Positions 16,929 to 64,000 of a stretch of DNA of 64,000 nucleotides are shown in pieces. Within the stretch, counting starts at the first letter, position 1, and every line of letters begins with the position of its first letter. The notes below the pieces were generated by a model. That model had not been told where the DNA came from and did no database searches. It was given only the letters and a program-made list of their open reading frames with translations. Made by a program: the position numbers and the translations under genes. The stretch comes from Macrostomum lignano. Taxonomy: Eukaryota. The stretch lies in the NCBI GenBank assembly GCA_002269645.1, contig NIVC01002018.1:148229-212228 (forward strand). The letters run 5' to 3'.

Positions 16929-17995
16929 ATGGCCGCGTCCAGCTCGTTCTCTCGCTATGACGTTCGAAGCATCATCAAGTTTTCTGTGCTGTCTGGAAAA
17001 TCGACACCAGAGATTCATCAAGAACTCGTGAGAGTCCTAGGAGAAGCTGCACCATCCATTCAAACGGTCAGGAAGTGGGTGCGAGAAATTCAAGAAGGAT
17101 GGGACTGCATGGAGGACAAAGAGCGTTCTGGACGACCAAGGACTGCGACAACGGATTCCAATGCTGATCGCGTGATGGCTTCTGTGAGTGAAGACAACAG
17201 AAGGACATGCAGTGAGCTGGAGGAACTCCTCGGCATTCCCCACAGCACTGTGCACCGCATTCTGACCAAGAATTTAGGCCTACAAAAGCTTTTCGCCAAA
17301 TGGGTGCCACACCTGCTGACTGACGAGCAGATGGAGGAGCGGGTGATGGTGTCCCAGGACTGCCTCCGTCGGGTTCGTCGTGAAGGCGACGGATTTCTCA
17401 GTAGAATAGTGACTGGAGACGAGACGTGGGTCTACGAATGGGACCCAGAGCTGAAGCGGCAGTCAGCGCAGTGGCTTCCGATAGGATCGGCGAGTCCCGA
17501 GAAGGTGCGACGCAAACAAGGCTCATTGAAGGTGATGCACATCATTTTTTTGACATTGACGGGATCATTCTGGACTGGCCTGTGCCTGTGGGTACCAAAG
17601 TGAATGCTGAGTACTATCGATGGGTGCTTCAAGAGAAACTGCGACCAGCGATAAGGAAAAAGAGGCCGGGCCTTCTGGAGAGAGGCGTCATATTCCATCA
17701 CGACAACGCCCCCGTGCATCGGGCCAGACGGGTTGAAGAGCTGCTCGGCTAGTGGAACTGGGAAATTCTCCGCCACCCGCACTACTCGCCTGATTTGGCT
17801 CCGGCAGACTTCTATCTGTTCCCGAAGATGAAAGAGAGCCTTCGTGGCCAGCGTTTCGGATCTGAGGAGCAGGTGAACAACAGCGCTTCATCAGCTCTCC
17901 GACATATGGCGATCGCAGGCTGCAGGCCCGCCTTTGAAGCGTGGGTGCGTCGCTGGGAAAAGTGCGTTGAGCTTGGCGGCCGATTTGTGGAGTGA
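16929..17995 (+). pseudogene. Mariner transposase pseudogene
   Basis: HTH region, WVPHLLT, TGDETW, HDNAP, YSPDLAPADFYLFP; frameshift in a T-run near 17545 and in-frame TAG near 17750. Confidence 0.92.
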
Positions 17996-18797: not shown

Positions 18798-26568
<7,771 letters not shown>

Positions 26569-43264: not shown

Positions 43265-44784
43265 ATGGCCTTCGAGCCGACTATGGATAAACAAGCTATT
43301 TCTAGGGACGGGGACCCTTCTAAACCCCAACCTCAGTCCGAAGGACCGGCCGGCCCTGCTGGCAGATCCCAACCGACTGATTCAACTGTGGCAAAGGAAG
43401 GACCGGCTGGCTCTGCTGGCAGATCCGACCAGAGCTACCAAACTCAAAATACCCTAAGACCTGCCAGCTCCGCTGGTGGATCTAAGGGAACCGCGAGCTC
43501 TGAGCCTAAAGGACCGGCCAAATCTGGCAGATCCGATGAAGCTCAGCGGGCTCGGCTTGAGCGCAAACGCGCTAAACAACGCGCCAAAAGGCAGGCCAAG
43601 AAGGGAGCTGCGGGGGCCAAAGCGGCGGCGTCCACCATGGATGCTGAAGCGACTGGAGTCCCAAGGCAACCAGGCGGGCCGGCCGGTGGAAGCTCCAGTA
43701 GTTCAGCGGCGGCGCTCCCTGGAGCTGCTGCCGCGGCTGCTGAGGCCAAACCACGGCGCAACAAATGGCCACTGCCAACAAGGAGGTTCCTTCGGGAGCT
43801 ACCTTTGCGGCGAAGGCCAAGGCCAAAATCCCGGGAGTGATCATCCAAGGTCGCGACCAGGACTGGACCACTGATCAGCTTCAAAAAGTGTGGAGTGCTG
43901 TTGACTCCTATCTGATTGAGCTGACTGTCGAGGAGGGAATCTCCATCGGCGTTGAGCGGATGGTGCTGCGAAGCACATTCGTTCTTATTGCTCCTAGCAG
44001 CGAGGAGGACGCTCGGCGGCTGCTCCAGCGGCTACCGACGGTCTCCTTGGATGCTGACCTTGGCGGAGCTCTTTTTCTTCGCGAGGGCCAGCGTCCAAAG
44101 ACGATACCCTATGTGGTTTTCGTCCCTGCTAAGAGCACCGCAGCTGGACCAGACGTTATTCGCCGGGTCCTACTGCGTCTGAACCCCGACCTCCCTGCTA
44201 GTGGACTGGTGTATCACCGTAAAGTCCGCAGGGGGGAGACGGGCAACTCAATTGTCCTCGGCCTTTCCAGCACTTGGGCGAGTCGGTACCCTAATGGATC
44301 CTCTTTCCAGCTGGGTGCCCTCAAGCTCAAGTTGCGCCGAGGAAAGTCTGCCAAAGGGAAGGCTACTGCCAACCCCGGCATCTCCGGCAAGAGCGGGGCG
44401 CAGTCTAAGGCCCAAGGAAAGGCGCAAGCCGATCCCAAAGCCAAAGCTGCATCTCGCCCCTCTGCTAGCAGCAGTTCGGCGACCGCGGTAACGGCTCCGG
44501 CCGAGCCCCGGGAACCAAACCTGCCAGTCGGAGAAGGAGTTGAGGACGAGGCCGGGTCTTCGGAATCCGAGCTCTCCTCGGCCACCTTGGTGGGGTCTGA
44601 AGGTAAAGATGCAGGTGAGGAAGCTTCCTCCATCCTGTCATCGGAGCCTGAGGACTCTGCTGGGGGGCCGGTGGGGGTGAGGAGGCCATGGACGTCGACC
44701 AACTCCCATCTCCCAGTCAAGCCCCAGCGGCCTGGGACGAGGACGATCTGTTGTCCAAGTCTCCTTGATGGCCCTGGGCTCTAG
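43265..44784 (+). CDS. LINE ORF1 (nucleic-acid-binding/gag-like), one apparent frameshift near 43780
   Basis: ORFs 43208..43840 and 43765..44784 join if an A-run gains one base; basic low-complexity N-terminus; no clear CCHC knuckle seen. Confidence 0.7.
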
Positions 44785-44807
44785 CCAGATATTGCATTTA
44801 ATACAGT

Positions 44808-47800
44808 ATGACTAAGCTCCACGCTGCCAAAGGAGCGACATTCTGTCTGCAAATAAATTTACAGCATTGCGTATCTGCGTCAGTAAATCTGATGAAGATT
44901 GCTGAGCTGTACAGGCCAGGCCTCATCCTGATCCAGGAACCCTGGATGCGCAACGGTAAGTTGCCCAACATTCCCTCTGGCTACTCTGATTTTTATGTGT
45001 GTGGCCCGGGGAACAGCCGCCCTAGAGCGGCTATCCTCGCTGCTAGCCATCTCCAGGCTTGGCTGAGGACTGATCTCTCTGATGGAGACCTTTGCGTCAT
45101 CCAATCTAATCATTTCTCTCCGCGTACGTGTCTTGTTGCCTCGGTTTATATCCCAGGCGACAGAGACCCTGCTCCCGAGAGTTTACTGCGCCTTGCGCAG
45201 TACTGCGAGTCCCAGAACGCTGAGCTGTGCTTAGGGGGCGACCTCAACGCGCACCACAAGCACTGGGGCAGCAAAGATACCAACACTAGAGGAGAGGAGC
45301 TTCTGGCCCTCATCTCTAACACAAACCTCATGCTCTGCAACCGCGGCAGCACTCCTACCTTTAATAATGGCAGATGGACCGAGGTCCTCGACGCCACACT
45401 CGTTACCCCAAGACTCTTTGACAGAGTCAAGGAGTGGAGAGTCTGGTCTGAGGAGCCCTCCCTGTCTGACCACTGCTTTATCGCCTTTAATATCGCGGAC
45501 ACTAAAACCCAGTCTCCGATCACTTGGAGACGCAATATCCGCAACACTGATTGGGCGGCCTACAAGGCTGCCCTTGATCTGCACCTGCAGGAACTCACGG
45601 ACTTACGTCCGATTGAGACCTGCGAGGATGTGGATCATATGGCTGAGACGCTGACAGGTTGCATTATTGCAGCCTACGAAGCGGCTTGTCCTGCTCGCGC
45701 CTACAGAGGCAAGACCTCGGCGCCGTGGTGGAACCCGGAGCTGGGGAAACTCAGGCGGAAGGCCAAAAGCCTTCATCGCCGTGCCATGAAGACCGGAAAC
45801 CCGGAGGACATGGAGCTTTTCCGGCAAGCCTCCCGCAATTTCAAATCTGAAGTGCGCAAGGCCAAGGAATGTAAGTGGCGCCAATTCTGCAATGAATTGG
45901 ATCAAGACAGACCTACTTCTAGGCTTGTCAAGGCCCTTACAATGGACAAAATGTCCAAATTAGCCATGATAAAAAAGATGATGGCTCTCTTACTAAAGAC
46001 CCTGAAGAAGTGCTTCAGCATATGCTTAGCACATTCTTCCCGAGGGTACCTACTGCTAGACCGGAGCCCAACCATTCGATGGATGGAGCCACCCTAGCGG
46101 CGGGCATTGTCACTGAAGACCTAATCGCTCGTGCGGTCAGAACCTTCAAACCCTTCAAATCTCCTGGACCTGATGGTATCTACCCTGTTCTCCTTCGTGA
46201 AGCAGCCAAGATACCCTCGTTCCTGAGACTCACCCGCAATCTTATGCGGGCCTCTATCCAGCTGGGATACGTTCCCAAAAGCTGGACTGAAGCTCGAGTA
46301 GTCTTTATTCCCAAACCTGGGAAGGGTGACTACCAAAGCGTCAAGGCCTTCCGGCCAATTAGCTTAACATCAGCAATGCTTAAGCTCACTGAGAGGCTTA
46401 TTCTCTGGCGGCTGCTCTCCTGCGAGCTGACAGCGATGCCCCTCAGCAATAATCAGCACGCCTTCCGTACCGGGAGGTCGACTGACAGCGCCCTGCATGC
46501 GATTGTCGAAAAGATTGAACGGGCGGTACTGGGTGACGGTTACGCCCTGGCTCTCTTTCTTGACATTGTTGGCGCCTTCGACAACGTTATCTTTGAAGCG
46601 TTTCAGAGGGCCCTTCAAAATCGCAAAGCTCATGCTACCCTCATACGGTGGATCATGTACATGATCTCCAACCGTACGGTCACTGCCCAACTTCTTGGGC
46701 AAACTGCCTCCACCAGAGTCTGTAAGGGTGGACCCCAAGGCGGAGTCCTCACCCCGACGCTCTGGAACCTGGTCATGGACGCTCTTCTGAGTGACTCCCG
46801 ACCTGACCCCGTCTTCAAAGTCGGGTATGCTGATGACGTCACGGCCATTGTGGCAGGACCGTCTCCCAGCACGCTCAGGGATCTGATGCAGAGCTTTATC
46901 CGCAAAGCAGAATCCTGGGCCAATGACAATGGTTTGGAACTCTCTGAGCCCAAAACCGTTGCCATTATGTTTACCAGCAGACTACGCTGGAACATACGTC
47001 CTCTGCAGCTCTACGGCAGAGATATTGCCTTCGCGCACCAGACCAGATGTCTCGGGGTCACACTTGACCACCGGCTCAACTGGTCCTTCCACGTGAAAGC
47101 AAAAGCTAAGCGTGCCTCAGCCATCCTGGCCCAGCTCCGACGAGCACTTGGCACTTCTTGGGGTCTATCCCCAAAGCGGCTTTGGTGGATCTATACTTCC
47201 GTAGTTAGACCTGCCATTACGTACGCCTCTGTTGTCTGGGTTAGCGCTACCCAGGTCAAAAGCCATGCAGACCTGCTCAACACGATCCAAGGCAGAGCGT
47301 GTAGGCTCATCTGCAACGCCACCAGGTCCACGCCCTTTGCTGGCATGGGGGCCTTTCTTAATCTTCCGCCTCTTGACCTCTTCATCAGGGGTGAGGCGGC
47401 TAGAACGACGCGGCGTCTAATTGATGCCGGCGTCAAATTCATTTACATGAGAGCACCTGCTAAGCGGAACCTTGTCCCGCATAGCGATCTGTGCCTCAAC
47501 TTTCTCAACGAGTGTCAGGCCAATCGCGTCTTCACCGATGGCATTGCCTCAACGCTCAACCTGAGACAGCGCTACTCCGTAGCTATCGACTCGCGCGATA
47601 ACATCAATGACCATTGGAACCCTGGTGAGCTTCATTGCTACACCGACGGTTCTAAGCAGTCAGCCAACACCGGCTTTGGTGTTGGAATCTTTCTGAACGG
47701 GAGGGTCATCGCTACCCACGCTCAATACACTGGGGTCAACTCCAGTGTTTTCCAAAATGAAGTTCTGGCCATCAGCTCCTGCACTGCAGAGCTTCTCGCC

Positions 47801-48547
47801 ACTGGCGTTACTGGTAAGAACATCATTTTCCATTCGGACAGCCAAGCTGCCTTGCACGCCATCAGTGGCTGCAGCACCAACTCTGCTACAGTCCTTGACT
47901 GTATCAAACTCCTCAATGTGTTGGGTTCCGCCAACAAAATTACCCTTAAGTGGGTTCCGGGGCATGTGGGGATCCGAGGAAATGAGTTGGCTGACACCCT
48001 TGCAAAAGTTGGTGCCTCCGGCTCCTCTCTCGGCCCCGAACCTCTTGTCCCGATTCCTGGCTGTGTCATCGACTCGCGCATCAAAGCGTGGATCAGGACT
48101 CAGCACCGCTCGACTTGGGCGAACCGCACGAACTGCAGGCAATCCAGAGGCGCTGTCCCTCAGCCCTCTCACCAGCTCCGGAAGCTCCTCTTGCGCCTCT
48201 CGCGCAGAGACATCCGGGCTGCCACCATGACCCTCTCTGGTCACGGCTGCTTCTCCAGGCACCAGTACCTGCAGGGCAACGCCACCAACGCCACCTGTAG
48301 TTTCTGCAACTCAGGTGACGAAACCGCTGAGCATTTCGTCAGCATCTGTCCCGCCTTCACGCGGGCCAGACTCACTTACCTCGGGCCACACACATCTATT
48401 ACTGAAGCGTGCAAACCCGAAAACTTTAATCAGCTCATGCGCTACCTTCGGGCCACCCGCAGGGCTGAACTCTCCTTTCCAGAGAGCACCATAGCTGCTG
48501 GCGACACTGGGGGACCTCCCTGGGCGGCGCCAACCCTCCGTCCATAG
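44808..48547 (+). CDS. LINE ORF2: APE endonuclease, reverse transcriptase, RNase H, CCHC; one frameshift in an A-run near 45975
   Basis: QINLQH, ILIQEP, GGDLNAHH, SDH; SPGPDG, FRPISL, QHAFR, FLDIVGAFD, PQGGVL, YADD; YTDGS, HSDSQAA, WVPGH, GNELAD; CSFC...HFVSIC. Confidence 0.95.
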
Positions 48548-49419
48548 CGACGCGTCGGCCGTTCAGGGACTAGCGGAATGGGCGCCCGCGCCTTCCCGCT
48601 GTGTCCCCTCCGGGACAGCCCTGCAGCTAAGTCAAGTAAGTCAAGGTACTTGAAGACGAATGTGACAGAGAAGGAGGGGATCGGGGTGACACACTGCGAT
48701 CTTTGGTACAACAACTGCATGCTGAGTAGGGACTCTAGCGGGCATCCGGTGGCGTGTCGCATTATTGACTGGCAAGTTTTCGGCATCGGTTCCCTAGCTC
48801 ACGATTTCGGGCTGCTGTGGCTGTCGAGTATCGATAACTCCATCGTTATTGAGCAGTTTTTTCCATTTGTGAAATATTATTATGACACTATCCGGCGGTT
48901 TTTTGGCGACTCAAATGCTCAAGTCGACGAGTTTCCGGTCTCTCTAGAGCGAATGAAGCAGCTAGCCGTCGCATCGGTGCTGGATGCCATCATCATGACT
49001 GTTGTATCGGTTGAAATTCTGCCTGCGATTGCCAAACCAGACAACTGGCTAGCAAATATGGCTGACTTGATCCAGTGCTTCAAGTTATAATTAGCTGGAT
49101 TTCTTGTCGTAATCGTAACTTTATGAAGTCTTCTGATAGCTGATCTGGTGAAATGAATTAAGAGAAATACTTGATTTATTCTAATTTCTTTTAGATTTTT
49201 AGATGGTATTTTAAACACACTGTGATTCTTGTGTGTATTGTCAGCGTTTTTTCTACTGTTTTAACGACTAGTTAACCAAAATTTACGCCCTTTCATACAT
49301 TTTTCACGGTATGGAACGATGTGCCATGAACAATTTCCCAAGAGTGAATAAACGTGGACTTGTGAGGGTCTTAGTTATAGACTGTGTTTAGTGTTTACTG
49401 TCTATAGGTATAATAAAAG

Positions 49420-50401
49420 TGAAGTAGAACGCTGTTTGCTTCCCGGTTAGGCACTTAAGATTACCTTAAGACTCGAGCCTCTTCAGTGGGAAGTTCTCTC
49501 AACTCTCAGTAGCGTAGGTAGTGCTGCCACCAGTTCCTTCAGGTCTCGGCCTTCGATGAGGTGAGCTTCCCGTCGGAACGAAATAACGAAGTCAACGAAC
49601 TCAGCACCGGGTGCAGATTTGCAGTTCAATTTACAAGGCGTCTCGTCAGCAGCACCTGCCGGGCTTGGTTGGTATGGAGGGCTGAGTTAGCCTCTCGTAG
49701 GTTTGGGCTTTAGTGGGGTCTCAGTCAGACCAGTACAAACGGATTCAGTACGCAAAGGGCACTTAGTTAGACACTGACGCACACGGGATCTTAGTGAATT
49801 CTCCGCAGATAAGAAGCCTCCTTGACGGAAACAAGGGGAGAGGGGTCCTATTTATAGCCGGGAAACACCCACGCACAAGACCTCGTGACTTGTTCTATTT
49901 TTAGAACTGACGTCACTTGAGGTCTCGAGGCAGGGTATCAGTGCGCGCAAGACCTCGTGACTCGTTCTATTTTTAGAACTGACGTCACTTGAGGTCTCCG
50001 GCCAGAGTACACGCGGCTGTGTCTCAGTTGCTATTTTTAGCAACATGAGTCACTCCTCTCCTTAGAGAAGGAAGGGGTACGAAAGCACGTGATTCTCCCG
50101 GTAAACAGGGCCAACGAGTGCAGTAAACATGTTTACTGCACTTAAAGACTCCAAGAACACAAAATCTGTCATGTGACTTGCTCACAAGTCAGAGGAAAAC
50201 GGGACGGGAACGAAACAGACAGCCTACAGCAGAGAAGCTGAGGGCTGAGAACAGAGACGCAGAAGGGCAGAACAGGCCAAGGGCAGCAACAGACGGGCGG
50301 GAAGCTGACCAGCGGCAGACAGCAACCCAGGGCGGGGGCGAGGGCGAAGGAAGCTGCTGACAATAGTGCGACGCCTAACACCAAACTAGCGGATCACTAC
50401 A
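49420..50401 (-). mobile_element. Probable solo LTR (Ty3/Gypsy-like)
   Basis: TG...CA ends (TGAAGT / ACTACA); 4-bp flanking duplication AAAG (49416-19, 50402-05); TATA-like CTATAAATAG on the - strand near 49850; two ~66-bp direct repeats with TGACGTCA at 49880-50000. Confidence 0.6.
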
Positions 50402-51882
50402 AAAGTTTTTTGTGTTTTATTTAATAGTGCATAGTTAGTCTTTTTTTACTTAATAAAATTCTTGGCTCCATTTATTCATTCCATAGCAGTCTGCGAAGGT
50501 GTAACTTTGACAAGGACCTTGACAAGTCCAAAGATCATTTTAATCTATAGACCAAAAAAATTTTACCATCTGGAACTAAAGCTGCGGAATAATGTTGCTG
50601 ATCTAATCGCTTTCTTCAAACTTGTGACGTAACACAGTTACATGTACGTTAGGACACGTGACTTCGTAAATAATTTTTATGATTACAATTTATCGCTCTT
50701 CAATTTGCAATTGTTCCAATCCGCTTTTAATCTTGTAATTGCTACTTTGAAGTACTGATTTACTTTGATTTTGGTTGTCTCTCTTTTTGTAGCATTTTGT
50801 CATGGTCTTAAATGCTTCATTTTTAATATGTTGCATTGCGATATACATGCAATAGGCAGAATTCTATTACTACTGTTATTATTAGTTGGTCGTCCGCATC
50901 GATTTATGTCTTTATTGCGAAATTCGCTCGTAGCTTGTCCGATGTAACGGTAGCCATGCCAAGAAGTGTCCAAGAATCCACTTGCGTCACCACATAGAGT
51001 CGTGACTGGTAAAATAGGAAAGAAATATCTAGACGACACGAACGACGAGAGGTCACGGTAAAAGTCGCCCAAAAATCGTTGGAAATTGAAGCGCTTTGTT
51101 GTCTTCGGCTCTGAAGCTAATCTGAGCAAACGCAAGTGACTCTGGGGCGTTTCTAGAATGTCTCTGGCGCCGTAAAGTCGTACATGTATCTGAGGCGTGC
51201 TATAGAGTCGCTTTAGAATTACTGAGTTGCGCCTTAATTGCATCCGCGTCACTTTATAAATGAATTAGGATCGTTTTTTTTTCGATTAGTACAACTCTTC
51301 AGTCTACTTGAGTTAGTAGATAGTTAAGCACAAGCACAACGACTCTTGGGTGACTTTCTTTCGACTCTTTTACAGTTTTATACAACTCCCGTGATGCGCT
51401 CGTGACTCAAAAGTTACCCAAAAGTCGTTAGTCACTAGTACGGTAACGCTACAATAACGTTTTTAACGGGTTGATATTTTGCCAAATCATGCTCACTAGC
51501 TAGGACTCGCGTTAGAGAAGCTTTGAACGCCCTTTGACGACCGAAACCATAACCTTAGCTATAGGATTTTCGCAGCTCAAGTAAGTTAACTGAGCTTACG
51601 AATTAACTACAGTATACTTTAACTTTGACTGCAGATACATGTGCTTACAGATACGAATAAGTCTTTGCCTGGCTGTTTGCCCTGTGTGGCTCGAATCGAT
51701 ATCAAAGTTTTTCTTATCTCAGACTATATTTGTATTTTTACTTGTGCTTCGAGCGCGGCACAGCCAATCTACTAGCTAGTAACAACGACAAGGGTTCAAA
51801 CTTCGAAGCTTTTCGTTAAAAAAACTAGCTAAAGCAGTGTACACGACAGACCAGAAAACTCTGCAATTCGAGAACTGACAAG

Positions 51883-53016
51883 ATGGACTTCAAACCTATT
51901 TTGCAGCGACTGTTCAACTTGGCACAGAATGAAACAGACAGCAGTATTGAAGAAGTTGGCGAAGAGATGACTGGTGAAACGGGGTTCCTCAGCTTCAGGC
52001 GCAAGCTCAGGATCAAAAAAGAAGACTCAACAATCAACATCTTTCTCAAGTTCAGCGACAACAGCCGGCAGGAGCTCGGAGAGTTGAAAGAATTCAGCGA
52101 TCATTTTTGTCCGAGAGAGTGCCTGTTCTACGGCACCTTCGCACCCTTGCTGGAGCGGACTGCCTCTCAGCTGGGCTTGGGAAGCGTCGGCCTGCCCACC
52201 GTTCACCTGGAAATGGTGCTGCCCACAGGAACTCTCATTGTGATGGAGGATCTCGGCGAGGCTGGCTTCGAGCTGGCTCCAGCCACAATGAACGTCGCTG
52301 AAGCTCGCTGCGTGCTGAGCAGTCTGGCTCGAGTCCAGGCAGCGTTCTGGCTGACGAAAGCTCGACTGGGCAGTCCGGCTTCGGGTCTGTTCGGACCGCA
52401 ATCGCCTTTTAGCGACCCTTTGAAATCCCTTACTGGCACTGCTGTCAACTTTGACGCCTTCCTCGAACAGGGCTTTGAAGAGTTCCGTCACAAGTTTGAC
52501 AATTATCTAAAATGCGAGAAGCGAGCAGCCATTGTCAATGCCTACTTAGAGGATGGATTTCTTGAGAAAACTCGAAAGGTCTTGAAAGTAAATCAGGAGA
52601 AGAGCGAAGTCGTAGGCGTGATTCACTGTGACTTGTGGTACAATAACTGCATGATCAGCAGGGACTCTCGTGGTCAGCCAATTGAGTGTCGTCTCATCGA
52701 CTGGCAGTTCTTCGGCATCGGCTGGCTGACCTATGACCTGGGCCCGCTCTGGATATCCAGCATTGACAATGCCATCGTCACGGAAGAGTTTCTGCCTTGC
52801 GTGGACTTTTATCATCACGCTGTCCAGTCCGCGTACGAGAGCGCGATAGGGGAGAAGTTCCCAGTCTCCCAGGAGCAGATGAGGCAACAGGCTGTGCAGT
52901 CGTTGGTCTACGGCATCGGTTGGGTCATACTGTCTGCGGATACGCTGTGGGCGTTCCAGTCGGTTAGCAACGTGCTTGCCAACATAGCCGACGTGATCGA
53001 ACACTTCAAGCTCTGA
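51883..53016 (+). CDS. EcKL/choline-kinase-like (APH-fold small-molecule kinase) paralogue 2, 377 aa, intronless
   Basis: RECLFY, IVMEDL, Brenner-type IHCDLWYNN, LIDWQ. Confidence 0.88.
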   Translation: MDFKPILQRLFNLAQNETDSSIEEVGEEMTGETGFLSFRRKLRIKKEDSTINIFLKFSDNSRQELGELKEFSDHFCPRECLFYGTFAPLLERTASQLGLGSVGLPTVHLEMVLPTGTLIVMEDLGEAGFELAPATMNVAEARCVLSSLARVQAAFWLTKARLGSPASGLFGPQSPFSDPLKSLTGTAVNFDAFLEQGFEEFRHKFDNYLKCEKRAAIVNAYLEDGFLEKTRKVLKVNQEKSEVVGVIHCDLWYNNCMISRDSRGQPIECRLIDWQFFGIGWLTYDLGPLWISSIDNAIVTEEFLPCVDFYHHAVQSAYESAIGEKFPVSQEQMRQQAVQSLVYGIGWVILSADTLWAFQSVSNVLANIADVIEHFKL

Positions 53017-53611
53017 TGTCTGCGTCATGTTAACCGGCTTCGATAAGTTAAAACTTTATTAAAATCTAAAATTAGATCTTTATTTTCTATGTTAGCTTAA
53101 GTTACAGTTAGAAGTTGTAATTGAATCACAAGCGATTCGAAATGAGCATGCGACAAAGTTTCCTATGACATTTTTCCATACGAGCGTACTTTTGACTAAA
53201 AGAGCGCCAATTTTATTTATTCATTTACGCGTTTTAGGCTATCTATGAATAAAACAAATAAAATAAAAGAAAAAACAAAGCCTCATGTTTTGATTTAATG
53301 AGCTTTTTCCAGTGGTAATTAAAACATTTTCTAAGTTGCTTCCAAATGTTTTATTGATTTTCACGACCAGATAATTTTGATTTTGTCAGTTAAGTTGATC
53401 ATGGCTTTACTTTTTATGGGGCCAGGGGTTGTAGCTTATAGATGGTTAGAGCGTCGTGGGTAGAAGTAAATAACTAGAAGAGACGGGACTATGATATTGC
53501 TCATGTAATTCTATTTTCTAGTTTTTCGTTTCTGCTGCTAAAAGAAGCAATAGGAGCTTCCTGCTCAAGCGCAGAGATGCTGACTAACGACTGAGCACAG
53601 TCGATCGCGAT

Positions 53612-54763
53612 CTACAGACCGAAATGCTCAATCAAATCAGCGACATTGTTGAGTACATTGTCAATCCGACGAAGCACTGGAATCATCTCGGCGAACGTGA
53701 CCAGCCAGGTGATGCCCCAGTTGAGCGACTGGACAGCCTGCTTCCTTATCGTCTCCTTGGAGACCGGGAACTCTTGCTGCAGCCCCGTCTTGTACAGAGA
53801 TCGAATGGTCTCGTCGTACAACTCCACACACGGCAGGTATTGCTCCACGGCGATGGCGTTGTCAATGCTGGATATCCAGAACGGCCCCAGGTCGAAGGTC
53901 AGCCGACCAATTCCGAACACCTGCCAGTCGATCAGGCGGCACTCGACAGGCTGTCCGCTGGCGTCTCTGCTGAGCATGCAGTTGTTGTACCACAGGTCCG
54001 AGTGCGTTATGCCCACTACTTCACGCTCCTCTTGGCCCGACTTGATCACCTGCTGAGCCTTCTTAAGATAGTCCCTATCCAGGTAGCCGTTGATGATGGC
54101 TATTCGCTTGTCGCACGTCATGTACTTTGCGAATTCGCGGCGGAACAACTCGAAACCGGCCGGTAGGAGCTCGTCCATGCTCTTCTTGGTTGCGGACAGG
54201 GCAAAGAAACCGTCGGACAGAGGCGACTGCGGTCCGAACAGACCCGAAGCCGGACTGCCCAGCCGAGCTTTCGTCAGCCAGAACGCCGCCTGAACTCGAG
54301 CCAGACTGCTAAGCACGCAGCGAGCTTCAGCAACGTTCATTGTGGCTGGAGCCAGCTCGAAGCCAGCCTCGCCGAGATCCTCCATCACAATGAGAGTTCC
54401 TGTAGGCAGCACCATCTCCAGGTGGACTGTGGGCAGGCCGATGCTTCCCAAGCCCAGCTGAGAGGCAGTCCGCTCCAGCAAGGGTGCGAAGGTGCCGTAG
54501 AACAAGCACTCTCTCGGACAGAAGCAGTCCATCAATTCCTTCAGCTCGCCCGAGTCCTGTCGGGTTGTGTCGCTGAACTTGAGAAACACATTGATGGTTG
54601 AGTCGCCCTTCTTAACCTTGAGCCGGCGCCGGTAGCTGAGGAACCCAGTTTCTCCCGTCATCTCCTCGCCCGCCGACGCGATGCACCGGTCGGCCTCGTC
54701 CTCAGTCAGGCTGAACAGTCGAGACAAAATCGCCCTAAAGTCCATTTGTCCGTTTGTTTCCAT
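53612..54763 (-). CDS. EcKL/choline-kinase-like paralogue 3, ~383 aa, intronless, convergent with paralogue 2
   Basis: RECLFY, IVMEDL, THSDLWYNN, LIDWQ. Confidence 0.88.
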   Translation of the reverse strand: METNGQMDFRAILSRLFSLTEDEADRCIASAGEEMTGETGFLSYRRRLKVKKGDSTINVFLKFSDTTRQDSGELKELMDCFCPRECLFYGTFAPLLERTASQLGLGSIGLPTVHLEMVLPTGTLIVMEDLGEAGFELAPATMNVAEARCVLSSLARVQAAFWLTKARLGSPASGLFGPQSPLSDGFFALSATKKSMDELLPAGFELFRREFAKYMTCDKRIAIINGYLDRDYLKKAQQVIKSGQEEREVVGITHSDLWYNNCMLSRDASGQPVECRLIDWQVFGIGRLTFDLGPFWISSIDNAIAVEQYLPCVELYDETIRSLYKTGLQQEFPVSKETIRKQAVQSLNWGITWLVTFAEMIPVLRRIDNVLNNVADLIEHFGL

Positions 54764-55889
54764 TTTTTCCTTTCCTTTCACGCAGTTTTATTCACGGTAG
54801 AACTGCCTATATAGACAGCAGGGTTTTGCGAAGTGTTTGTACACTGAGTGTTTTTCTCTCCCAGGGTAGAGCGACCGAGTGCAGAGTTTACCCAGAAACT
54901 GTCTGTCACACCCCAGCTAAAAGTTTGGCCGTCATTTTGATAGCAAAGGGTAGAGAATAAATTGGGGTTGAGCGGCAGGAGAGTACATTCATTATTGAGA
55001 GTGCACTCGGATAAGATCTCTAACCCCCATACCAATGAACTGCGAGCTGCATGTACGAGTAAGATGTTTGTTGTTAAACGAGGGTCCTAGTGGGCTGGCC
55101 AAACCACTGAGAATAGTGGGGTGGGTCCTTAGAGTTTATGTGCTACTAACAGTAGCGCTATATGGACTTTCGTTCAATTCCTACAAAGACGGTCTAGTTT
55201 TTTATAATTTAACCATTATCTATCTCGTACTAGCTATCTCAACTACATTCAGCTATCTCAACTACATTTAGCTCCCTTAGTGGCTCCTCCCTTGAGGTGC
55301 AAATGTACCTCCATGGCCCGCTCCCACCATGACCCTTCCATCGGTTTTCGATTTCGCTATGACCTTCAATCTATTAAAATCTTTATTTCGCAAATTTTTA
55401 GTCAGCCCAAGTACACAGCAGCCTTCAGTCCAGGACTACCAAGTGCTGCTGTGTGGTTAAAAAATTGCGTGAACCGAAAAAGTTAAAAGTGAGTGCATTG
55501 CAACACGAACACTCCAGCCTCTCAGCTACATCAGCTTTAGTGCTGCTGCTATATAGCGTTTTAGTGTTTCGCTTCTTTTCCTCGAAAGAAGGACGAGAAA
55601 ATGTTGAACGAAGCGTTGCACTTCAGGGTTCGTCAGCTGTTGCTGCAATTAAGTTTTTAATATTCGGGGATTTCTCGAGCGTTCGAAACATTTTCCCCGG
55701 AGATGTCCGCAGGGGGAAGTTCGAAATGAATAAGCCGAGGAAAAGTTCAAGTGCTGGGGCAGAGGTCAGTTCTAACGAGGGGAAATGCTCACGACTCGAC
55801 TTTGAATAATCGCGTCCTTATTGTAACAAAATCTGTTCTATTATTTGAGTTTACGAATGTTAAATATTTCTATATTAATTTCCCAAGAT

Positions 55890-56945
55890 TTGCATAGAAT
55901 TCTCTTGATCTGCATAGATTCTCTAGATCTGCAAAGGTTTCTATAGATCTGCATAAAAGTCTCTAGATCTGAATAGATTTCCCTAGATCTGCATGGGTTT
56001 CTATAGATCTGCATAGGTTTCTCTAGATCTGCATAGATTCTCTAGATCTGCGTAGGTTTCTCTAGATCTGCATAGATTCTCTAGATCTGCATAGATTCTC
56101 AAGATCTGCATAGATTCTCTAGATCTGCATAGATTTCTCTAGATCTGCATAGATTCTCTAGATCTGTGTAGGTTTTTCTATGCATAGATTCTCTAGATCT
56201 GTGTAGGTTTCTATGCATAGATTCTCTAGATCTGCATAGATTCTCAAGATCTGCATAGATTTCTCTAGATCTGCATAGATTTCTCTAGATCTGCAAAGGT
56301 TTCTATAGATCTGCAAAGGTTTCTATAGATCTGCATAGAAGTCTCTAGATCTGAATAGATTTCCCTAAATCTGCATGGGTTTCTATAGATCTACATAGGT
56401 TTCTCTAGATCTGCATAGATTTCTCTAGATCTGCATAGATTCTCTAGATCTGTGTAGGTTTCTCTAGATCTGCATAGGTTTCTCTAGATCTGCATAGATT
56501 TCTCTAGATCTGCATAGATTCTCTAGATCTGCATAGATTTCTTTAGATCTGCAAAGGTTTCTATAGATCTGCATAGAAGTCTCTAGATCTGAATAGATTT
56601 CCCTAAATCTGCATGGCTTTCTATAGATCTACATAGGTTTCTCTAGATCTGCATAGATTCTCTAGATCTGCGTAGGTTTCTCTAGATCTGCATAGATTTC
56701 TCTAGATCTGCAAATGTTTCTATAGATCTGCATAGGTTTCTCTAGATCTGCATAGATTTCTCTAGATCTGCAAAGGTTTCTATAGATCTGCATAGGTTTC
56801 TCTAGATCTGCATAGATTTCTCTAGATCTGCAAAGGTTTCTATAGATCTGCATAGAAGTCTCTAGATCTGAATAGATTTCCCTAGATCTGCATAGATTTC
56901 TATAGATCTGCATAGGTTTCTCTAGATCTCCACAGATTTCTAGCT
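55890..56945. repeat. 20/21-bp minisatellite (TCTAGATCTGCATAGATTTC)
   Basis: Directly visible tandem array. Confidence 0.95.
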
Positions 56946-57619
56946 GCATTGATCTGTTATGGATTTCTCAGTCATCGGCTGTCTTGCAGCTAAAACATAT
57001 TCTTATACCAATGGAATCTGTCTAGTGTGTGACATATGGCGTTTTTTATCCCTTAAGTGACTCTAGTCTAGATGTGTATCGAGACTGTGGGGGGTCTGAG
57101 TGATCCCCTAGCCATATAAAACACTCTCCCAAGAAACCGATAAACTGACTGCCATGCAATGAGATAAAAAGCTCTCTGACTGCACTGAGCTGCCAGCGAA
57201 CTGGCAACGGACCATGGCGATACACGCGGATTTCCACACTTTACACAGCAACTTAAAGACAAGGAGTTGCCCTGCTGCGATGCAATATATAGCCCATGGT
57301 TTACACGCCGGCTCTGCGGCTGCGGACTGAGGCTGAAGACAGAACGGCCAACCGCTTTATGATGGAGAAAGTGCTGGAAGCTGCCCACTCCCCCCCCCAA
57401 GTTTCTGGCCCGTGTAGCCGACCGAAAATCAATTGAGGCCGGGATCGATTTAATGCGGGGCGACGAGGCGCGGGACGGATAGGGGAGACCGCGGCTGCTG
57501 CTGGCGAGGGCTGGGAGAACCCGGCCAGAATCCATAATTTCAATCACTGGGCTCTGTTTTTGCTGCGACGCTCAGGCCTTTTAAAGTGGCATTTTTAGCG
57601 CTTTGAACCTGCGATCGGC

Positions 57620-57665
<46 letters not shown>
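57620..57665. repeat. (TATC)n microsatellite abutting the Polinton-like terminus
   Basis: About 11 units, followed immediately by AGTAG. Confidence 0.95.
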
Positions 57666-57707
57666 AGTAGAAGGCATGAGGGGGCTTCTGGGACAAAATT
57701 TTTCACT

Positions 57708-57925
57708 TCCTCCATAATCCACCTAAATCCATCCATATAATCCCTGACAGAATCAGAAAAAAAGGGGGGTCGCACCCGCTCACAAAACCTCCTCCATAAT
57801 CCACCTAAATCCATCCATATTATCCCTGACAGAATCTTGAAAAAGGGGAGGGGTCGCACTTGCTCCGAAAACTTCGAACATAATCCTATTAAATCCATCC
57901 ATATTATCCCTGACAGAATCAGAGC
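57708..57925. repeat. Subterminal ~80-bp tandem repeats (x3) in the presumed Polinton TIR
   Basis: cataatcc(a/t)(c/a)(c/t)taaatccatccatat(a/t)atccctgacagaatc occurs three times. Confidence 0.85.
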
Positions 57926-58134
57926 ATAACCGGTGTCCTAATGTTATGCTCTGAGGGTTTATGCTCTAAGCATAAAAGCTCCAAATCCACCCATAGCATG
58001 TTCGAAACAATCAGAAAATAATCTGCATTCTTCTCCCCACATTCAATCCGAAGCGGCGAAACCAGATCCCCAAGACTTTAAATCATCAGCGCAGGGTCCT
58101 CACCCTTTGAAAAAAATTAAATTCTCAATAAAAA

Positions 58135-58425
58135 ATGTTTCCAGTTGTCTCTCCAGGTTCTTATTATACTCAGCCCCATCCATTGTACAAATCCAAGTAC
58201 CGATGCAAACTAGAATGCAGCGAGTACATGAGAAAATATTGGCCTGACGTTGATATCAATGGCCCTAATATTAATCAAGCACTTAAATCTCACTGGTTTG
58301 AAAAACACGGAGTAGTCATTAACGATTATGACAGCTACTATAACTTTGCTGAAGTTATAAGGCAATTGAAGTGGCCAACTATAAGGTTGTACCTGGTGGC
58401 TTATATCGTAATTTTACAAGTCTGA
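58135..58425 (+). CDS. Small hypothetical viral ORF, 96 aa
   Basis: ATG preceded by AATAAAAA like the other viral ORFs; convergent with the penton gene; no family recognised. Confidence 0.5.
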   Translation: MFPVVSPGSYYTQPHPLYKSKYRCKLECSEYMRKYWPDVDINGPNINQALKSHWFEKHGVVINDYDSYYNFAEVIRQLKWPTIRLYLVAYIVILQV

Positions 58426-58432
58426 AGACGAC

Positions 58433-59290
58433 TCACATTCTCTCTATAACAATTGTTAGCACAAACTCTTCCCCGTTAAAATCGACACCAACTCCATCCT
58501 CTGTTTCAAACTGCAGAACGATTTCATGTATCTCTCTATTACTCAGAATCACTCTTTTCACGGGGTTTGGCTTTTGCACAAGCATTTTGCCACCAGCAAC
58601 AGAGTTTGAAATGTTAAAAAGTATGTTGGTTCGTTTGCCTTTGAATATCCAATCATGGCTCAGATTGCTACGAATTAATATATTCAAACCTTTGACAATG
58701 TCAGCGATATTTGGCGCCAAGTACATACCGGATATTAGCCGGGACACAGCAACAGTGCCAGGCGCCTGCAGCGGGCTTTGGTCTGTGGCGCCACCATAAA
58801 CTCTCTTTTCAAATCCCAACTCGCGATACCAAGTGCCATCTTTAAACTCTACCTCTGCGTCCTTATGAACTTGCAAGATAACTCTCATGACAGTTAGATC
58901 ATAAGTTAATCTAACAGGGAACAGTTTATTTTCTGGTTTGCTTTCATCCGGTATCTCAAAATGCTTTCGTTTAGTGAAGACGTTCTCCAAGAAGTAATTA
59001 TAAGTATCCACGCTCTGTGTGCTGACAGGAAATATCACAACCTCTGTTGTAGTACGCTTCCATTTGTAATAAAACTTGTTATTTTCCGCTGTCACATTGG
59101 GAACATTTGACCACCCAGTGAAATCATTGAGATAGACGTGGTAATTCGCCTCGGGATCCAAACGAAGTGGTTGCTCCAATTTTTGAATGAAGATTCCGTT
59201 TGACTCAGTAATGCGACCCGCTACAGTGATTGGAATGCTCTCCTTAGAGTGTGAAACAATGTTGTTTAGTCTTTCGGCTATGGCTTCCAT
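58433..59290 (-). CDS. Minor capsid protein (penton, single jelly-roll), 285 aa
   Basis: PLRLDPEANYHVYL...WSNVPNV..ENNKFYY, RELGF, ADIV..LNILIRSNL, NILFNI...GKMLVQKP, VDFNGEEFVLTIVI: pattern typical of Polinton/adintovirus minor capsid proteins. Confidence 0.8.
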   Translation of the reverse strand: MEAIAERLNNIVSHSKESIPITVAGRITESNGIFIQKLEQPLRLDPEANYHVYLNDFTGWSNVPNVTAENNKFYYKWKRTTTEVVIFPVSTQSVDTYNYFLENVFTKRKHFEIPDESKPENKLFPVRLTYDLTVMRVILQVHKDAEVEFKDGTWYRELGFEKRVYGGATDQSPLQAPGTVAVSRLISGMYLAPNIADIVKGLNILIRSNLSHDWIFKGKRTNILFNISNSVAGGKMLVQKPNPVKRVILSNREIHEIVLQFETEDGVGVDFNGEEFVLTIVIERM

Positions 59291-59312
59291 TTTTTTATTG
59301 AAAAAAAATTAT

Positions 59313-60605
59313 TCAAACTTTACTAGACGAGTTATTGATCATATTGACCTTGATCTTCCTCTCAAATGCATAGATAATAAACAGATCAACAGCCGTTGCG
59401 GCACCAAATTCTTTCCGCTCGATATTAGTCACAATGTTAACAGGGCTATTGTCTGTAGGCATTTGTCTAGCAGTCACATCAACACCAAATATTGGATATA
59501 GTTTTTTTATACTGCAAGGTTGTCAAAACAATACCGTTATTCTCTTTGACAGCCAGGTCCGACAGTTCATTGTAAAACTTACTAATCTTGTTCTCCGAGA
59601 AATTCCCATTTTGTGGCAATGCAGGGTATAAATTGTCACTGATCTCATGTTGAATCGATCGAATGTTTCCATGTAGATATCTACCTACATTAGTTGTATT
59701 CCTCATAGTGACAATAATGTACCTTGGATTGCTACAGGAGCCTTCTTTAATGCAAATATTGTGTCTTGCGTCATTCCGCTCATCTCTGCACATATAAGCT
59801 GTATAAGCAACATCAATGTCTTTCTCAATCGCCTTCAAGTATTCAGCTTTGAGTGCAGTCTTGGGCTCAATAATTTCTAAGTACAGCTCCACGCTAGTTA
59901 GCTTAATCTCCATCGATGTATGATTGGCCCCCGACCAAATTCCTCTGTTCCGATCATCTCTAGTCTAAATGTGTAGCTAAAGTTGCTTGTCAACCGATTG
60001 AAACTATTACAGAAACCACTCATAAACCTCAAAGGTACAAAAATATCTACAGACCTAAACAGCGGATTCTTAGCAGCATCGTTCTCACCAACAAGAGCAT
60101 AGTTGTATCTCTCCTTTCTCTTTTTGTAACCAGGGTCATTCTCATCTCCTGTCTGTTCATTGGGGATGAATCCAGCACCGCTCCCCATCTGAATAAAATC
60201 CGGGTTCTCAATCAAGCACTGGGTATCATAGACCACACCAAAGTTTGCTATTCTTTCCAATTCTGTACTTCCATTGGACACATTAAACTCTTTGAACATA
60301 TAAGCCCAGAAATTACTGGTTAGTGCGACATCCGCATTGTGTAGATCATCATTAGCATGAGCGGCGTCTGCGCCTCCTTTAGTTTTGAATTGATACGTCA
60401 TATAGAAGCCGCTCCTTAGACTGTGCACACTAACCAAATACGAACATCCATTGTATGTAAATGTCAGTGTTTGACCAGGACCAAGATTAGTTTCATTCTG
60501 ATTTTCCTGACTGGGAACTCTTACCTGAGTCGCTTTGATTGTGCTATCATCACTCAAAATAGGCTTGTTAATTTTGTAGAAAACTGGTGTCAGTGGGTCG
60601 TTCAT
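59313..60605 (-). CDS. Major capsid protein (double jelly-roll), ~430 aa after correcting two homopolymer frameshifts
   Basis: ORF 59898..60605, ORF 59479..59913 and a tail YKKLYPIFGVDVTARQ...NSSSKV* join by +1 G (G-run ~59927) and -1 A (run ~59505). Beta-rich; VPLRFMSGFC, PRYIIV, YP...GNF. Confidence 0.75.
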
Positions 60606-60635
60606 TTTTTAACTAAAAATAAAATAAAATAAGAA

Positions 60636-61562
60636 ATGAAGCGAAAAAGTACACAGCAGATATCTGAATTGGAGAAGCTAGCACAAGCAGAGAAACGAGT
60701 TACCGGGCTAATAAATAAGGAGCAACAATCCTACAATGAATTCGTCCAAGCAGCCACCGAATTTCACAAACCCGGATACACAGAAGCGAAGAAAAACCTC
60801 GACACTGTGAAGGAAGCAGTTGATGATATTCAAGAGAGCCACTTGCAAAACACATTGGGTAAAATCCCATCTTCACCGGGACAACCACAGGCTCAGCAAC
60901 CAGGACAACCAGTGCAGATGAATGTGAAGGATAACTTTTTTGGCCCCGTATTGGATGATGGAAAATATATTTTTGGAATTAGCGACTGGCGAAAAAATAT
61001 TACCGGGGAACCGGCGGATTACAACATTGAAGTGACGAAGGAAACTATTTCAATCAATAAAGGCGCAGAAACTAAACGAATCCCCTTCACTCAAACTTTA
61101 CTTGATTACATGACTAAAAATCAGAAAAAAAGATCCGAGAAGCAGCTAAAAAATTACAAAGATCTTGTTACCTTTGCTCTCGATAGGGACATAGACATTC
61201 TCAAGAACAACGGTGTTTTGAAAATTTTACATGAAAACGGGATTGTCTTGAACAATTGTAAAAAATACAAATACTTTAAACAATGGTTTGGTTTGCCGGA
61301 TCAAGAAGAGGTCATAAGACAACAAACACAACAACCACAACCGCCACAACAACCACAACAGCAGCAACCACAACCACAACCACAACAACAACTACAACAA
61401 CCACAACAGCAGCAACCACAAACACAACCACAACCACAACAACCTCCACCGCCACAGCAACAAAAAACCCAGGTTGAACAAGTACTTGATCAACTTGACA
61501 CTGTAGACCGATTCTTGTTTCGCAGTACAAAGATAGAAACCCTGATACTTGGCGACAATTAG
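60636..61562 (+). CDS. Polinton accessory protein with Gln/Pro-rich C-terminal tract, 308 aa
   Basis: N-terminal coiled coil; FFGPVLDDGKYIFG...FTQTLLDYMTK...LKNYKDLV block; CAACCA-type repeat tract; divergent from the MCP gene across a 30-bp spacer. Confidence 0.7.
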   Translation: MKRKSTQQISELEKLAQAEKRVTGLINKEQQSYNEFVQAATEFHKPGYTEAKKNLDTVKEAVDDIQESHLQNTLGKIPSSPGQPQAQQPGQPVQMNVKDNFFGPVLDDGKYIFGISDWRKNITGEPADYNIEVTKETISINKGAETKRIPFTQTLLDYMTKNQKKRSEKQLKNYKDLVTFALDRDIDILKNNGVLKILHENGIVLNNCKKYKYFKQWFGLPDQEEVIRQQTQQPQPPQQPQQQQPQPQPQQQLQQPQQQQPQTQPQPQQPPPPQQQKTQVEQVLDQLDTVDRFLFRSTKIETLILGDN

Positions 61563-61581
61563 AACAGTTCTCCCAGAACGA

Positions 61582-61860
61582 ATGAAGCGAATCAATGACA
61601 GAGTATTCACACCTAGGCTACAGCAACCCTCACCAGGAACATCCTTCTCTGACCAATCATTCGAATCACCACCAAGCTCTTCCGGAAAAGGCATGCCTGA
61701 ATTCTACAAGCGAGTAGCGGTTCTTCTAGGTGCAGCAAAGACCGGAATGAAAGATGAGAATAGAAAAGTGTTCGTTCACATCCTCAATAAAATTCTTGAG
61801 AGAAAATACATCGATAAGAGGGCGAGAGAGCTTCTGCTTTCGCGGTTCAACAAAAAATAA
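61582..61860 (+). CDS. Small Polinton accessory ORF (possibly the frameshifted C-terminus of 60636..61562)
   Basis: GKGMPEFYKRVAVLLGAAKTG...ILNKILERKYI resembles the 'RL.LL.AS..AGN' type domain I associate with Polinton group 2 elements. Confidence 0.5.
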   Translation: MKRINDRVFTPRLQQPSPGTSFSDQSFESPPSSSGKGMPEFYKRVAVLLGAAKTGMKDENRKVFVHILNKILERKYIDKRARELLLSRFNKK

Positions 61861-61876
61861 TTTATTTCAAGTAAAA

Positions 61877-62296
61877 ATGCCACTTATTTTCGAAAAAGAC
61901 ATTGACAAATACTATGACAAAGAGGAACTTAATCTCATTAAACGCGAATCTGGACTTTTCCCTGCCGGCCACTATCCAAGAAAAGAACGCTCTGGGAATG
62001 GCCTTGCCGATTTGATCGCTCAGGGGGCCAAGATTTTTAAGGTCATTGGAGAGAACAAAGAGAACATCAAGAACGTTGCCGAAGCGGCTGGCAGTGTAGC
62101 CACAGCAGCCAAAAAGATTAAAGATACGGTTCATAAAACCCGGAAATCAATACCAGATATTCAACCCCTTGCACCGAGTGCAGATAGTGTCGATCCAGCC
62201 ATCTACGCAAAGATGAGAGCTGAATATAAGAAAGGAGGCGTTTTAAATTTGACTAATTTGGTGCACCCTGACGGTAAAAGAGGTGTGAGGGTGTAG
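61877..62296 (+). CDS. Putative virion core / membrane-active protein, 139 aa
   Basis: SGNGLADLIAQGAKIFKVIG...VAEAAGSVATAAKKIK is an amphipathic helix after a Gly-x-Gly site; TAAAAATG start. Confidence 0.55.
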   Translation: MPLIFEKDIDKYYDKEELNLIKRESGLFPAGHYPRKERSGNGLADLIAQGAKIFKVIGENKENIKNVAEAAGSVATAAKKIKDTVHKTRKSIPDIQPLAPSADSVDPAIYAKMRAEYKKGGVLNLTNLVHPDGKRGVRV

Positions 62297-62452
62297 GACT
62301 AGTCGGATGTAGGACTAGTCGAAAAAAGACACACACATCCCGAAAAAAGACACACACTTCCCGCAAAGAGACACACACATACACATCCCGAAAAAAGACA
62401 CACGCGTCTTAAATACACAAGTTTAAAAAGAAAAAGTTTTTTTACATAAAAA

Positions 62453-63251
62453 ATGGACTTCACAAACGACTTTCATCCCCACTGGACACGCAATCAGATA
62501 AAATTTGCTCACAACGAGATAATTCCAGGGCACTTCCGATGCATTGTTGTTGGCTCATCTGGGTCAGGGAAAACCTTCAGAGTTTTTAACATGCTCCTCA
62601 GACCTGGATTCCTCGATTATGACACACTACATATCTATTCACCCACTCTGTATCAAGATGAGTATAAAATGCTAGTAGCGGGCCTACAGAACAAACTCAA
62701 CAAGGAAGATATTATTCAATGTTTTAGACATCAAAAAGACCTCAACAGCAACCCGGAAGTTGTAGCCACCGAATACGCAAAGCACATCCCAGACAATGAA
62801 AAATGGCAAAACATTAAAGTTTTCACTTATGGAGATCCACAGATAGATCCTAAAACTAAACTCTTACCTCAACCTGATGAACTAGAAAAGGGGAGAAAGC
62901 ACCTGATTGTCTTCAATGACTGCATGACCGGTCCCCAGAAACAGATAGAAAATTATTTCACCCGGGTAGACATAATAATTGCAATGTTATTTACATTGCC
63001 CAAAACTGGTTTGAACTGCCAAATAAACAATTAGAGGTAACTGTAATTTGATTCTCCTTTTCCCAACCATACCACAGGATCGACTGAAACGATTTTATAA
63101 TGAGGTCATTGCCCCAGCTCACATTACATATCCAGCTAAGAACTCTAACAGAACAATATCACAGGAGGAATTTGTTAACATATGCTATGAAAAGTGGAAC
63201 CAACCCTATCAGTTTGTCATGATTAATAAGGAGAAAAGAATTTTACTTTAA
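62453..63251 (+). CDS. A32/FtsK-like DNA-packaging ATPase, ~266 aa after two single-base corrections
   Basis: Walker A VVGSSGSGKT, Walker B LIVFNDC; +1 at ~62965 gives FTRGRHNNCNVIYIAQNWFELP and +1 at ~63025 gives TIRGNCNLILLF. Confidence 0.88.
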
Positions 63252-63267
63252 TTTTTCATTTAAAAAA

Positions 63268-64000
63268 ATGTCTATTAATTTTGCTGGTGAGTCAACTACA
63301 GGCAACAGCACTCTCACAACTTCCTTCCTTGACAAGCGCTACATTAACACTGATGAAGAGATCCCAGAGATCAAACTGAATAAAAACAGACTGAAAGCCC
63401 TAGAGCGCTCCATGCACCAGTTGCAAATAAACATGGAAGATCTCAGGCTTAAAGTAGCTAGGCAGAAGTTTGAAAGTGATAAGCTTTATGTGCCGTTGTT
63501 AAACGCAACTAATGAACTTAGGTCAGAAATAACTTCGGCAGTCTCGCAAATCAACGGTTTGAGATCGACAGTTAATCTTCTGGAAATTCCACTGATAGAC
63601 GGATGCGTATTCTTGAAGGAGGAGTTTTCACAAACACAGCTAAAGTAAATAATTTAGAAGAGTTCATGAACCAGTCAACAGCATTGCATGATAGAATTAA
63701 AGAAAACGTCGCAACCAACACAGGTAAAGTAAATAATTTAGAAGAGTTCATGAACCAGTCAACAGCGATGCATGATCGAATCAAAGAAAGACTTGAAGCA
63801 TTAAAGAGAAACGATGTATCACACAGTAGCTATCTAAACGAATGTATAGCTCTTGGGGTAAAAAATAATAAGGAGCTTAATCGTCTGGAGAGAACACTCA
63901 ATCTTCGTGACATTGCTATTGATGAAGCAGAATCTACTGCTCGTCCGGTCATTTCTACAGATGAAATTACAAAAGAAAACAGATCTTTCAAACCGGTAGT
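63268..64000 (+). CDS. Long coiled-coil viral protein (fibre/spike-like?), frameshift near 63585, open to window end
   Basis: Heptad-rich; +1 A restores LLENSTDRRMRILEGG...; contains two 84-bp (28-aa) repeats starting at 63642 and 63726. Confidence 0.6.

Follow-up and report, generated by a model that had tools for sequence, protein, structure and literature searches.

A likely Polinton/Maverick provirus of a young, mosaic family in the genome of the flatworm Macrostomum lignano

The DNA analysed here is a stretch of 64,000 nucleotides from Macrostomum lignano (G000:C2018:148229-212228), called the window below, the last part of which, from position 57,666 onwards, carries a block of virus-like genes. 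It is highly probable, in our judgement, that this part makes up the leftmost 6.3 kb of a ~17-kb Polinton/Maverick provirus inserted in a host microsatellite, belonging to a recently amplified family and likely being a defective recombinant copy. The genes are closely packed, without any hint of introns; the penton-like and capsid genes lie on the minus strand and are followed by four genes on the plus strand (Table 1). This is the layout described in a previous reading of the letters (the sequence-only reading), which placed tandem penton-like and major-capsid-like genes on the minus strand, and accessory genes with an A32-type ATPase on the plus strand. It had counted eight open reading frames (ORFs), compact and intronless; compactness and the lack of intron signs are retained, but the genes are six, the extra ORFs being pieces produced by frame breaks. 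Likewise, the abrupt switch to an A-rich block that it reported is correct as far as the gene block starts at an exact boundary, whereas the G+C change is not abrupt (37–42% in 58–64 kb against 37–55% in the preceding 10 kb), and the excess of A is confined to the plus strand of 60–64 kb (AT skew +0.10 to +0.31).

Table 1. Features of the element and of its insertion site (positions in the window).
Feature	Position	Strand	Remarks
(ATCT)n host microsatellite, insertion site	57620..57665		left target-site duplication in its last 6 bases, 57,660-57,665
Left terminal inverted repeat core, ~600 bp, begins AGTAG	57666..58270		match to C714 right arm
Three 82-84 bp subterminal repeats within the terminal inverted repeat	57675..57920		repeat families D3/D4
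96-amino-acid ORF, doubtful gene, overlaps inner terminal inverted repeat	58135..58425	+	no Pfam family above cut-off
Likely penton/minor capsid protein, 285 amino acids, open frame, version A	58433..59290	-	adjoins capsid gene; homologue P0130
Predicted major capsid protein gene (double jelly-roll), version A, three pieces	59313..60605	-	PF21738, Foldseek
Glutamine/proline-rich accessory gene	60636..61860	+	408 amino acids in two other assemblies of the insertion; split only in the window
Small basic protein, ~125-140 amino acids	61877..62296	+	amphipathic-looking stretch after glycine-rich motif
Short tandem repeats, 16 and 21 bp units, intergenic	62289..62408		repeat families D16, D5
Predicted A32/FtsK-type packaging ATPase, version X	62453..63251	+	266 amino acids on C714; breaks near 62,950-63,050 only in the window
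Coiled-coil accessory gene	63268..64000	+	244 amino acids on C714 and C5187; in the window split and truncated by contig end

The left boundary of the element is exact, AGTAG at 57,666 directly following the host (ATCT)n run. The genome was searched with the first 400 bp of the element, and of the 636 candidates obtained the best 40 were scored and their DNA fetched. In all 40 junction rows, which represent 39 places and, by a count of the printed rows, 28 different flanks, the element starts where 57,666 would lie, with AGTAG in 36 of the 40, confirming the start proposed from the letters. The (ATCT)n site, together with one further copy in the same repeat, prompted us to consider a targeting of microsatellites, which was rejected because most of the 28 flanks are unrelated and the repeat is common, another run of ~0.8 kb being found at 23.2–24.0 kb of the window. 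A tandem array of ~20-bp units is located at 55800–56950, shortly before the insertion.

Since the window and its contig stop at the same point, inside the element, the remainder was read on other contigs. C714, C5187 and C1655 share the host flank of the window and are 99.6–99.8% identical to it, and C4301 has the right end. On C714 the insertion is 16.9 kb long and ends in a second terminal inverted repeat (TIR), as expected by the sequence-only reading, and across the first 600 bp the left TIR is 97–100% identical, per 100 bp, to the right arm of this copy. Past the right TIR the (ATCT)n run resumes in both C714 and C4301, with a phase shift compatible with a 6-bp target-site duplication (TSD), the length of which is fixed within this repeat only to 2 modulo 4; besides this insertion, clear 6-bp duplications were found in five two-ended copies. 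The 6-bp TSD that had been anticipated is present, altogether, in 6/6 two-ended copies, two of which are probably one insertion assembled twice.

Past the genes of the window, C714 carries in the order a 212-amino-acid membrane-like ORF, a protease, pPolB, a 154-amino-acid pX-like ORF, an rve integrase and a PLA2-like ORF; pPolB, integrase, protease and right TIR had all been predicted downstream. Pfam, run on the unchanged ORFs of the window insertion and of sister copies, assigned the integrase to PF00665 (E 5.3e-10; a 338-amino-acid ORF on C714 with D, D, E motifs), the PLA2 gene to PF08398 (E 7e-13, sister copies), the pX-like gene to adenovirus pX (PF05829, E 5e-7) and the packaging ATPase to PF04665 (E 7.5e-7 in a sister copy, above the cut-off, and 9e-4 for the window piece). 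The match of the adenovirus protease, PF00770, falls just below the cut-off (E 3.6e-4, 20.7 bits against 21.3). As for pPolB, which is in pieces on C714 and C5187, the query gave no PF03175 match at E ≤ 0.05; Exo I–III and Pol A–C motifs were read on a sister copy, and Pfam revealed an endonuclease VII-like insert. There were 6,017 pPolB homologues among the 8,000 scored, with relatives 42–47% identical, many of them with PF03175, and the named ones belong to sponges, cnidarians, an echinoderm and a mollusc; as judged from these relatives, pPolB is of the ordinary invertebrate type.

With core genes, TIRs and 6-bp TSDs present on C714 and sister copies, the element falls within Polintons as they are defined (10.1101/2023.08.22.554363, PMC4028283), and both the Polinton/adintovirus identity and the left-end position given by the sequence-only reading stand. 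The features described for Polintons/Mavericks (Polintoviricetes; see also PMC11161782) and recognised in this family are a length of 13–25 kb with TIRs, a TSD (6 bp, within the 5–8 bp allowed), pPolB, an rve integrase, an A32 ATPase (PF04665) with a protease, a double jelly-roll (DJR) major capsid protein (MCP) and, as a likely feature, an adjacent penton.

Sequence and structure predictions identify the product of the MCP gene as a DJR major capsid protein. In a sister copy it matches the DJR family PF21738 with E 3e-5, under the curated cut-off of Pfam, and the same family is carried by 9/9 MCP homologues. By Foldseek the MCP model gave, against a viral library, 110 matches at E ≤ 0.001 (best E 5e-12), and the top rows were DJR capsids of giant viruses, virophages, adomaviruses and a MELD virus, at 6–12% identity. 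Both Pfam and Foldseek, the latter from a low-confidence model, point to the jelly-roll fold on which the capsid assignment of the sequence-only reading depended. A PDB sequence search with the MCP gave nothing meaningful, and a PHROG search nothing useful for the proteins of the element. The 285-amino-acid penton candidate had no match in Pfam or by PDB sequence search, and its single-sequence model reached a predicted local distance difference test (pLDDT) value of 30. Instead, its homologue P0130, 64% identical, matches viral clusters in the Atlas at template modelling (TM) scores of 0.78–0.79 and is assigned by features to a Sputnik minor-capsid cluster (0.97, 205/256), PF21507 being present on 26% of the cluster members. 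This homologue, and the position beside the MCP gene, suggest that the 285-amino-acid protein is likely the penton or minor capsid protein.

The MCP has relatively few relatives: among 1.84 billion representatives, 498 were found at E ≤ 0.001 and 23 at E ≤ 1e-30, and the close ones that were looked up are 44–77% identical and are all unnamed proteins from ENA, JGI and Logan. A tree built from 26 proteins joins the two versions from this host as sisters (100/100) and places them inside a clade of such unnamed proteins from the three sources. Pattern scans gave 511 matches in JGI metagenomes and 91 in IMG/VR, with no relative among them. By its sequence, the MCP forms a distinct clade, in contrast to pPolB with its thousands of relatives.

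The family is large. The exact 30-nt end motif occurs 410 times in the genome G000 (control 0), and version-specific 22-mers mark 46 + 192 capsid genes (238 markers) and 66 + 171 ATPase genes; the distinct insertions are fewer than the markers, because some of them are assembled 2–4 times. The window insertion with its flank was assembled four to five times at >99.5% identity (C2018, C714, C5187, C1655 and C4301) and other insertions two to four times, and from these assemblies the genome appears to be duplicated, polyploid or over-split. At 12 loci with different flanks the DNA difference is 19–21% between the two versions and 0.5–3.4% within a version, with no intermediates. Copies of the version-A MCP differ by 0.55–0.78% (3 pairs), and for a 301-bp piece the best 40 of 278 candidates are all 99–100% identical. 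Hundreds of near-identical copies and the low difference within versions agree with the recent origin that the sequence-only reading supposed. The ratio of non-synonymous to synonymous substitution rates (dN/dS) between versions is 0.09 for the MCP, 0.05 for the penton and 0.03 for the ATPase, with synonymous sites near saturation, and 0.07–0.11 among version-B MCPs at dS ~0.1 (pairwise, few pairs). These values indicate purifying selection on capsid, penton and ATPase; for the glutamine/proline-rich accessory gene, dN/dS is 0.39.

The TIR arms of one copy are 97.5–99.6% alike in 4/6 two-ended copies, as compared with ~85–93% between copies. On C4576, arms only 86% alike accompany a matching 6-bp TSD, as if a recombinant had integrated without equalised ends or a later conversion had occurred. 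At two places (C28:361607-364036; C105:570690-574509) a pair of end motifs face each other across only 2.4 and 3.8 kb, and these may represent short non-autonomous derivatives. Moreover, pairs of capsid markers in opposite orientation, 6.7–14.8 kb apart, were observed at C276:289406-300637, C633:136769/145312, C1098:31721/46513 and C1652:30887/37547, the pair on C276 being enclosed by two end motifs; such pairs resemble defective, palindromic genomes in which each end has a capsid arm.

Two capsid versions (A and B) and two ATPase versions (X and Y) are found in all four pairings. On contigs C1–C1830, to which the count was limited as all four marker lists are complete there, 86 of the 119 capsid markers could be paired and 33 could not, with BY 61, BX 12, AX 7 and AY 6 (Fisher p 0.007, on copies that are non-independent); the pairing in the window is AX. 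The mixed combinations likely arose by recombination, and the two well-separated versions would be explained most simply by two lineages that evolved apart and then met in one germline. On the integrase side, the arm of C714 (L003:7520-8545) contains the 3' half of a version-B penton and a tRNA-like host repeat with 2,575 candidates genome-wide, and this junction is common to at least seven assembled copies, including C2344, C1330, C819, C4035, C1486 and C869.

On the basis of what is known for Polintons and adenoviruses, the rve integrase would insert a linear genome, which protein-primed pPolB would copy from its ends; pairing of the ends during replication could equalise the two TIRs of one copy, leaving TIRs that differ between copies. 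The ATPase would package the DNA into a double jelly-roll capsid and the protease would mature it. If two once-separate lineages share a germline, template switching between co-resident genomes during replication might swap modules. As to the window copy, it would need the proteins of other copies for renewed movement.

The insertion in the window is likely defective, because a break in the MCP gene near 59,500 is common to 4/4 assembled versions of it and the Walker B motif of the ATPase, in the window and on C714, deviates from the 19/19 other loci read. A second MCP break, near 59,950, is present in 2/4 versions; outside this insertion the MCP is unbroken in 12/15 loci, against 0/4 versions of it. 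On C714 the protease and pPolB are also in pieces, which may be an error. Compared with both C714 and C5187, the window has further indels near 61,500–61,600, 62,200, 62,950–63,050, 63,550 and 63,800–64,000, and most of them are not in contigs from public runs; most of the breaks private to the window are probably assembly errors near the contig end. The suggestion that the virus was possibly virion-competent is, thus, not supported for this copy, though it may apply to the family.

Several points weigh against the reading of a young provirus family whose modules recombine. The element is known from assembled contigs, and the assembly is indel-prone and redundant, which makes breaks and counts uncertain; in short-read contigs the family is collapsed, so that they give no confirmation of the common MCP break at this locus. 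No contig from public runs covers capsid and ATPase together, so that mosaics are seen in the assembly alone. The AlphaFold model of the MCP is weak (pLDDT 52.7, TM to its matches 0.3–0.4), and the fold of the penton leans on the Atlas model of its homologue. In addition, in 2/6 two-ended copies the TIR arms are only 86% and 94% alike. Among the public runs listed with the element there was no RNA run. In contigs from runs guessed to be RNA, depth was low over genes and non-coding TIR alike, which has no bearing on expression.

It is possible, if somewhat doubtful, that the family moves as a self-synthesising transposon within the genome only and carries along capsid genes whose conservation goes back to an earlier viral phase. 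High copy number and many broken copies would fit such a behaviour, as would the short and palindromic derivatives, the host repeat inside at least seven copies and the absence of any sign of particles; on the other hand, the low dN/dS among close version-B MCPs, albeit from few pairs, is hard to account for without a recent need for the capsid. We consider it unlikely, and propose it tentatively, that a very recent superinfection took place, in which version A, with its copies within 0.8%, entered the germline in virions and recombined into the resident family, with particles still being made. If so, this host, sequenced in at least 7 studies, would be a place to find the virion of an animal Polinton, unobserved according to the cited papers, with a capsid from a clade for which environmental DNA is otherwise the sole source.

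It is improbable that chimeric assembly of 17-kb repeats produced the module mosaics and part of the copy number. The assembly is in fact rich in indels and redundant, several insertions are present 2–4 times, and the two modules are never on one public contig; nevertheless, separately assembled contigs of one insertion agree (AX in C2018, C714 and C5187; AY in C4945, C2606 and C3540), TSDs match in 6/6 copies and each of the four pairings recurs at several sites. That the stretch is free virus or foreign DNA misjoined to a host contig, as the contig end inside the element might suggest, is refuted in practice because the TSDs match, and also conflicts with four contigs in which the same host flank adjoins the element, with the TSD matched at the right end in two, and with the 20 public runs with the element, from 7 studies, all under one organism label.

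When the family is compared with known systems, it differs from Polintons/Mavericks in its MCP, a distinct clade with unnamed close relatives and just 23 matches at E < 1e-30 among 1.84 billion representatives. With the Alpha and Beta adintoviruses (PMC8502044) it shares an animal host, hexon, a likely penton, adenain, FtsK, integrase, and PLA2 and pX-like genes. In Alpha adintoviruses PLA2 with a C-terminal pX forms one PLA2X, whereas here PF08398 and PF05829 are in two separate ORFs; unlike in adintoviruses, pPolB has an endonuclease VII-like insert and lacks the PF03175 match, which many of its relatives have. An adintovirus protein in the Foldseek list is 9% identical to the MCP. Alpha and Beta adintoviruses are also told apart by the PolB class (PF03175-type or divergent) and an N-terminal OTU domain; here an OTU-like Cys motif was seen and the His pattern was not found. 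For the GasderminX and Cupiennin-like genes of the Beta virion module, a motif search of the supplement of PMC8502044, as far as available, gave nothing.

Vertebrate Mavericks (PMC8097293) likewise mix broken and open copies, with 6-bp TSDs and purifying selection on morphogenesis genes, and in fish, where the capsid genes are under purifying selection, particles are unobserved. They have a median of 8 and a maximum of 287 copies, the largest sets being defective, and another gene order; in the present family, for which the redundant assembly gives 238 capsid markers, many capsid frames are open and two versions reside together. Swapping of virion modules has been described in adintoviruses (PMC8502044), exchange of pPolB in nematode Polintons (10.1101/2023.08.22.554363) and wide mosaicism in polisuviruses (10.64898/2026.10.13.758929). 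Modules therefore reassort between Polintons in those cases as well; there the replicase moves between distant groups, whereas here capsid and ATPase reassort in one family, in one genome and at a kilobase scale.

A flatworm host is not new in itself, because Polintons have already been reported in a planarian (PMC8532177). Flatworm terms are absent from the available text and supplement of PMC8502044. A literature search made with a flatworm host in view turned up no account of this family, which may nevertheless be listed in Repbase, in subscription papers or in bioRxiv supplements, all outside the scope of that search. Polintons are common in invertebrate genomes, so a single further provirus, probably damaged, is ordinary; what is notable is a young mosaic family with hundreds of copies in one animal, a capsid under purifying selection and a countable exchange of capsid and ATPase; such a family records module exchange inside one genome unusually well. 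One host would allow testing whether animal Polintons form particles and how modules reassort, and through the capsid lineage a group of environmental proteins without names is tied to a host.

As for the remaining genes of the element, the glutamine/proline-rich one has no Pfam family above the cut-off save a spurious-looking domain of unknown function, and the small basic protein no match in Pfam or PHROG. The motif of the latter is one that we take to indicate a candidate virion protein matured by the protease, and the protein is possibly of this kind. An 84-bp repeat at 63,630–63,789 lies inside the coiled-coil accessory gene.

Elsewhere in the window, the genes (mariner, LINE, vWA and ecdysteroid-kinase-like ones) are those of an animal host. 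A multi-exon gene with a vWA domain (18800–25100, minus strand), which includes the (ATCT)n run at 23.2–24.0 kb, presumably resembles a CLCA-type protein. A fragment of a Mariner/Mos1-type transposase was found at 16878–17603. An array of ecdysteroid-kinase-like genes (PF02958 for two of them) occupies 41951–54787, and its first gene is apparently split, at ~43.7–48.5 kb, by a retrotransposon without long terminal repeats (non-LTR) bearing endonuclease, reverse transcriptase and RNase H.

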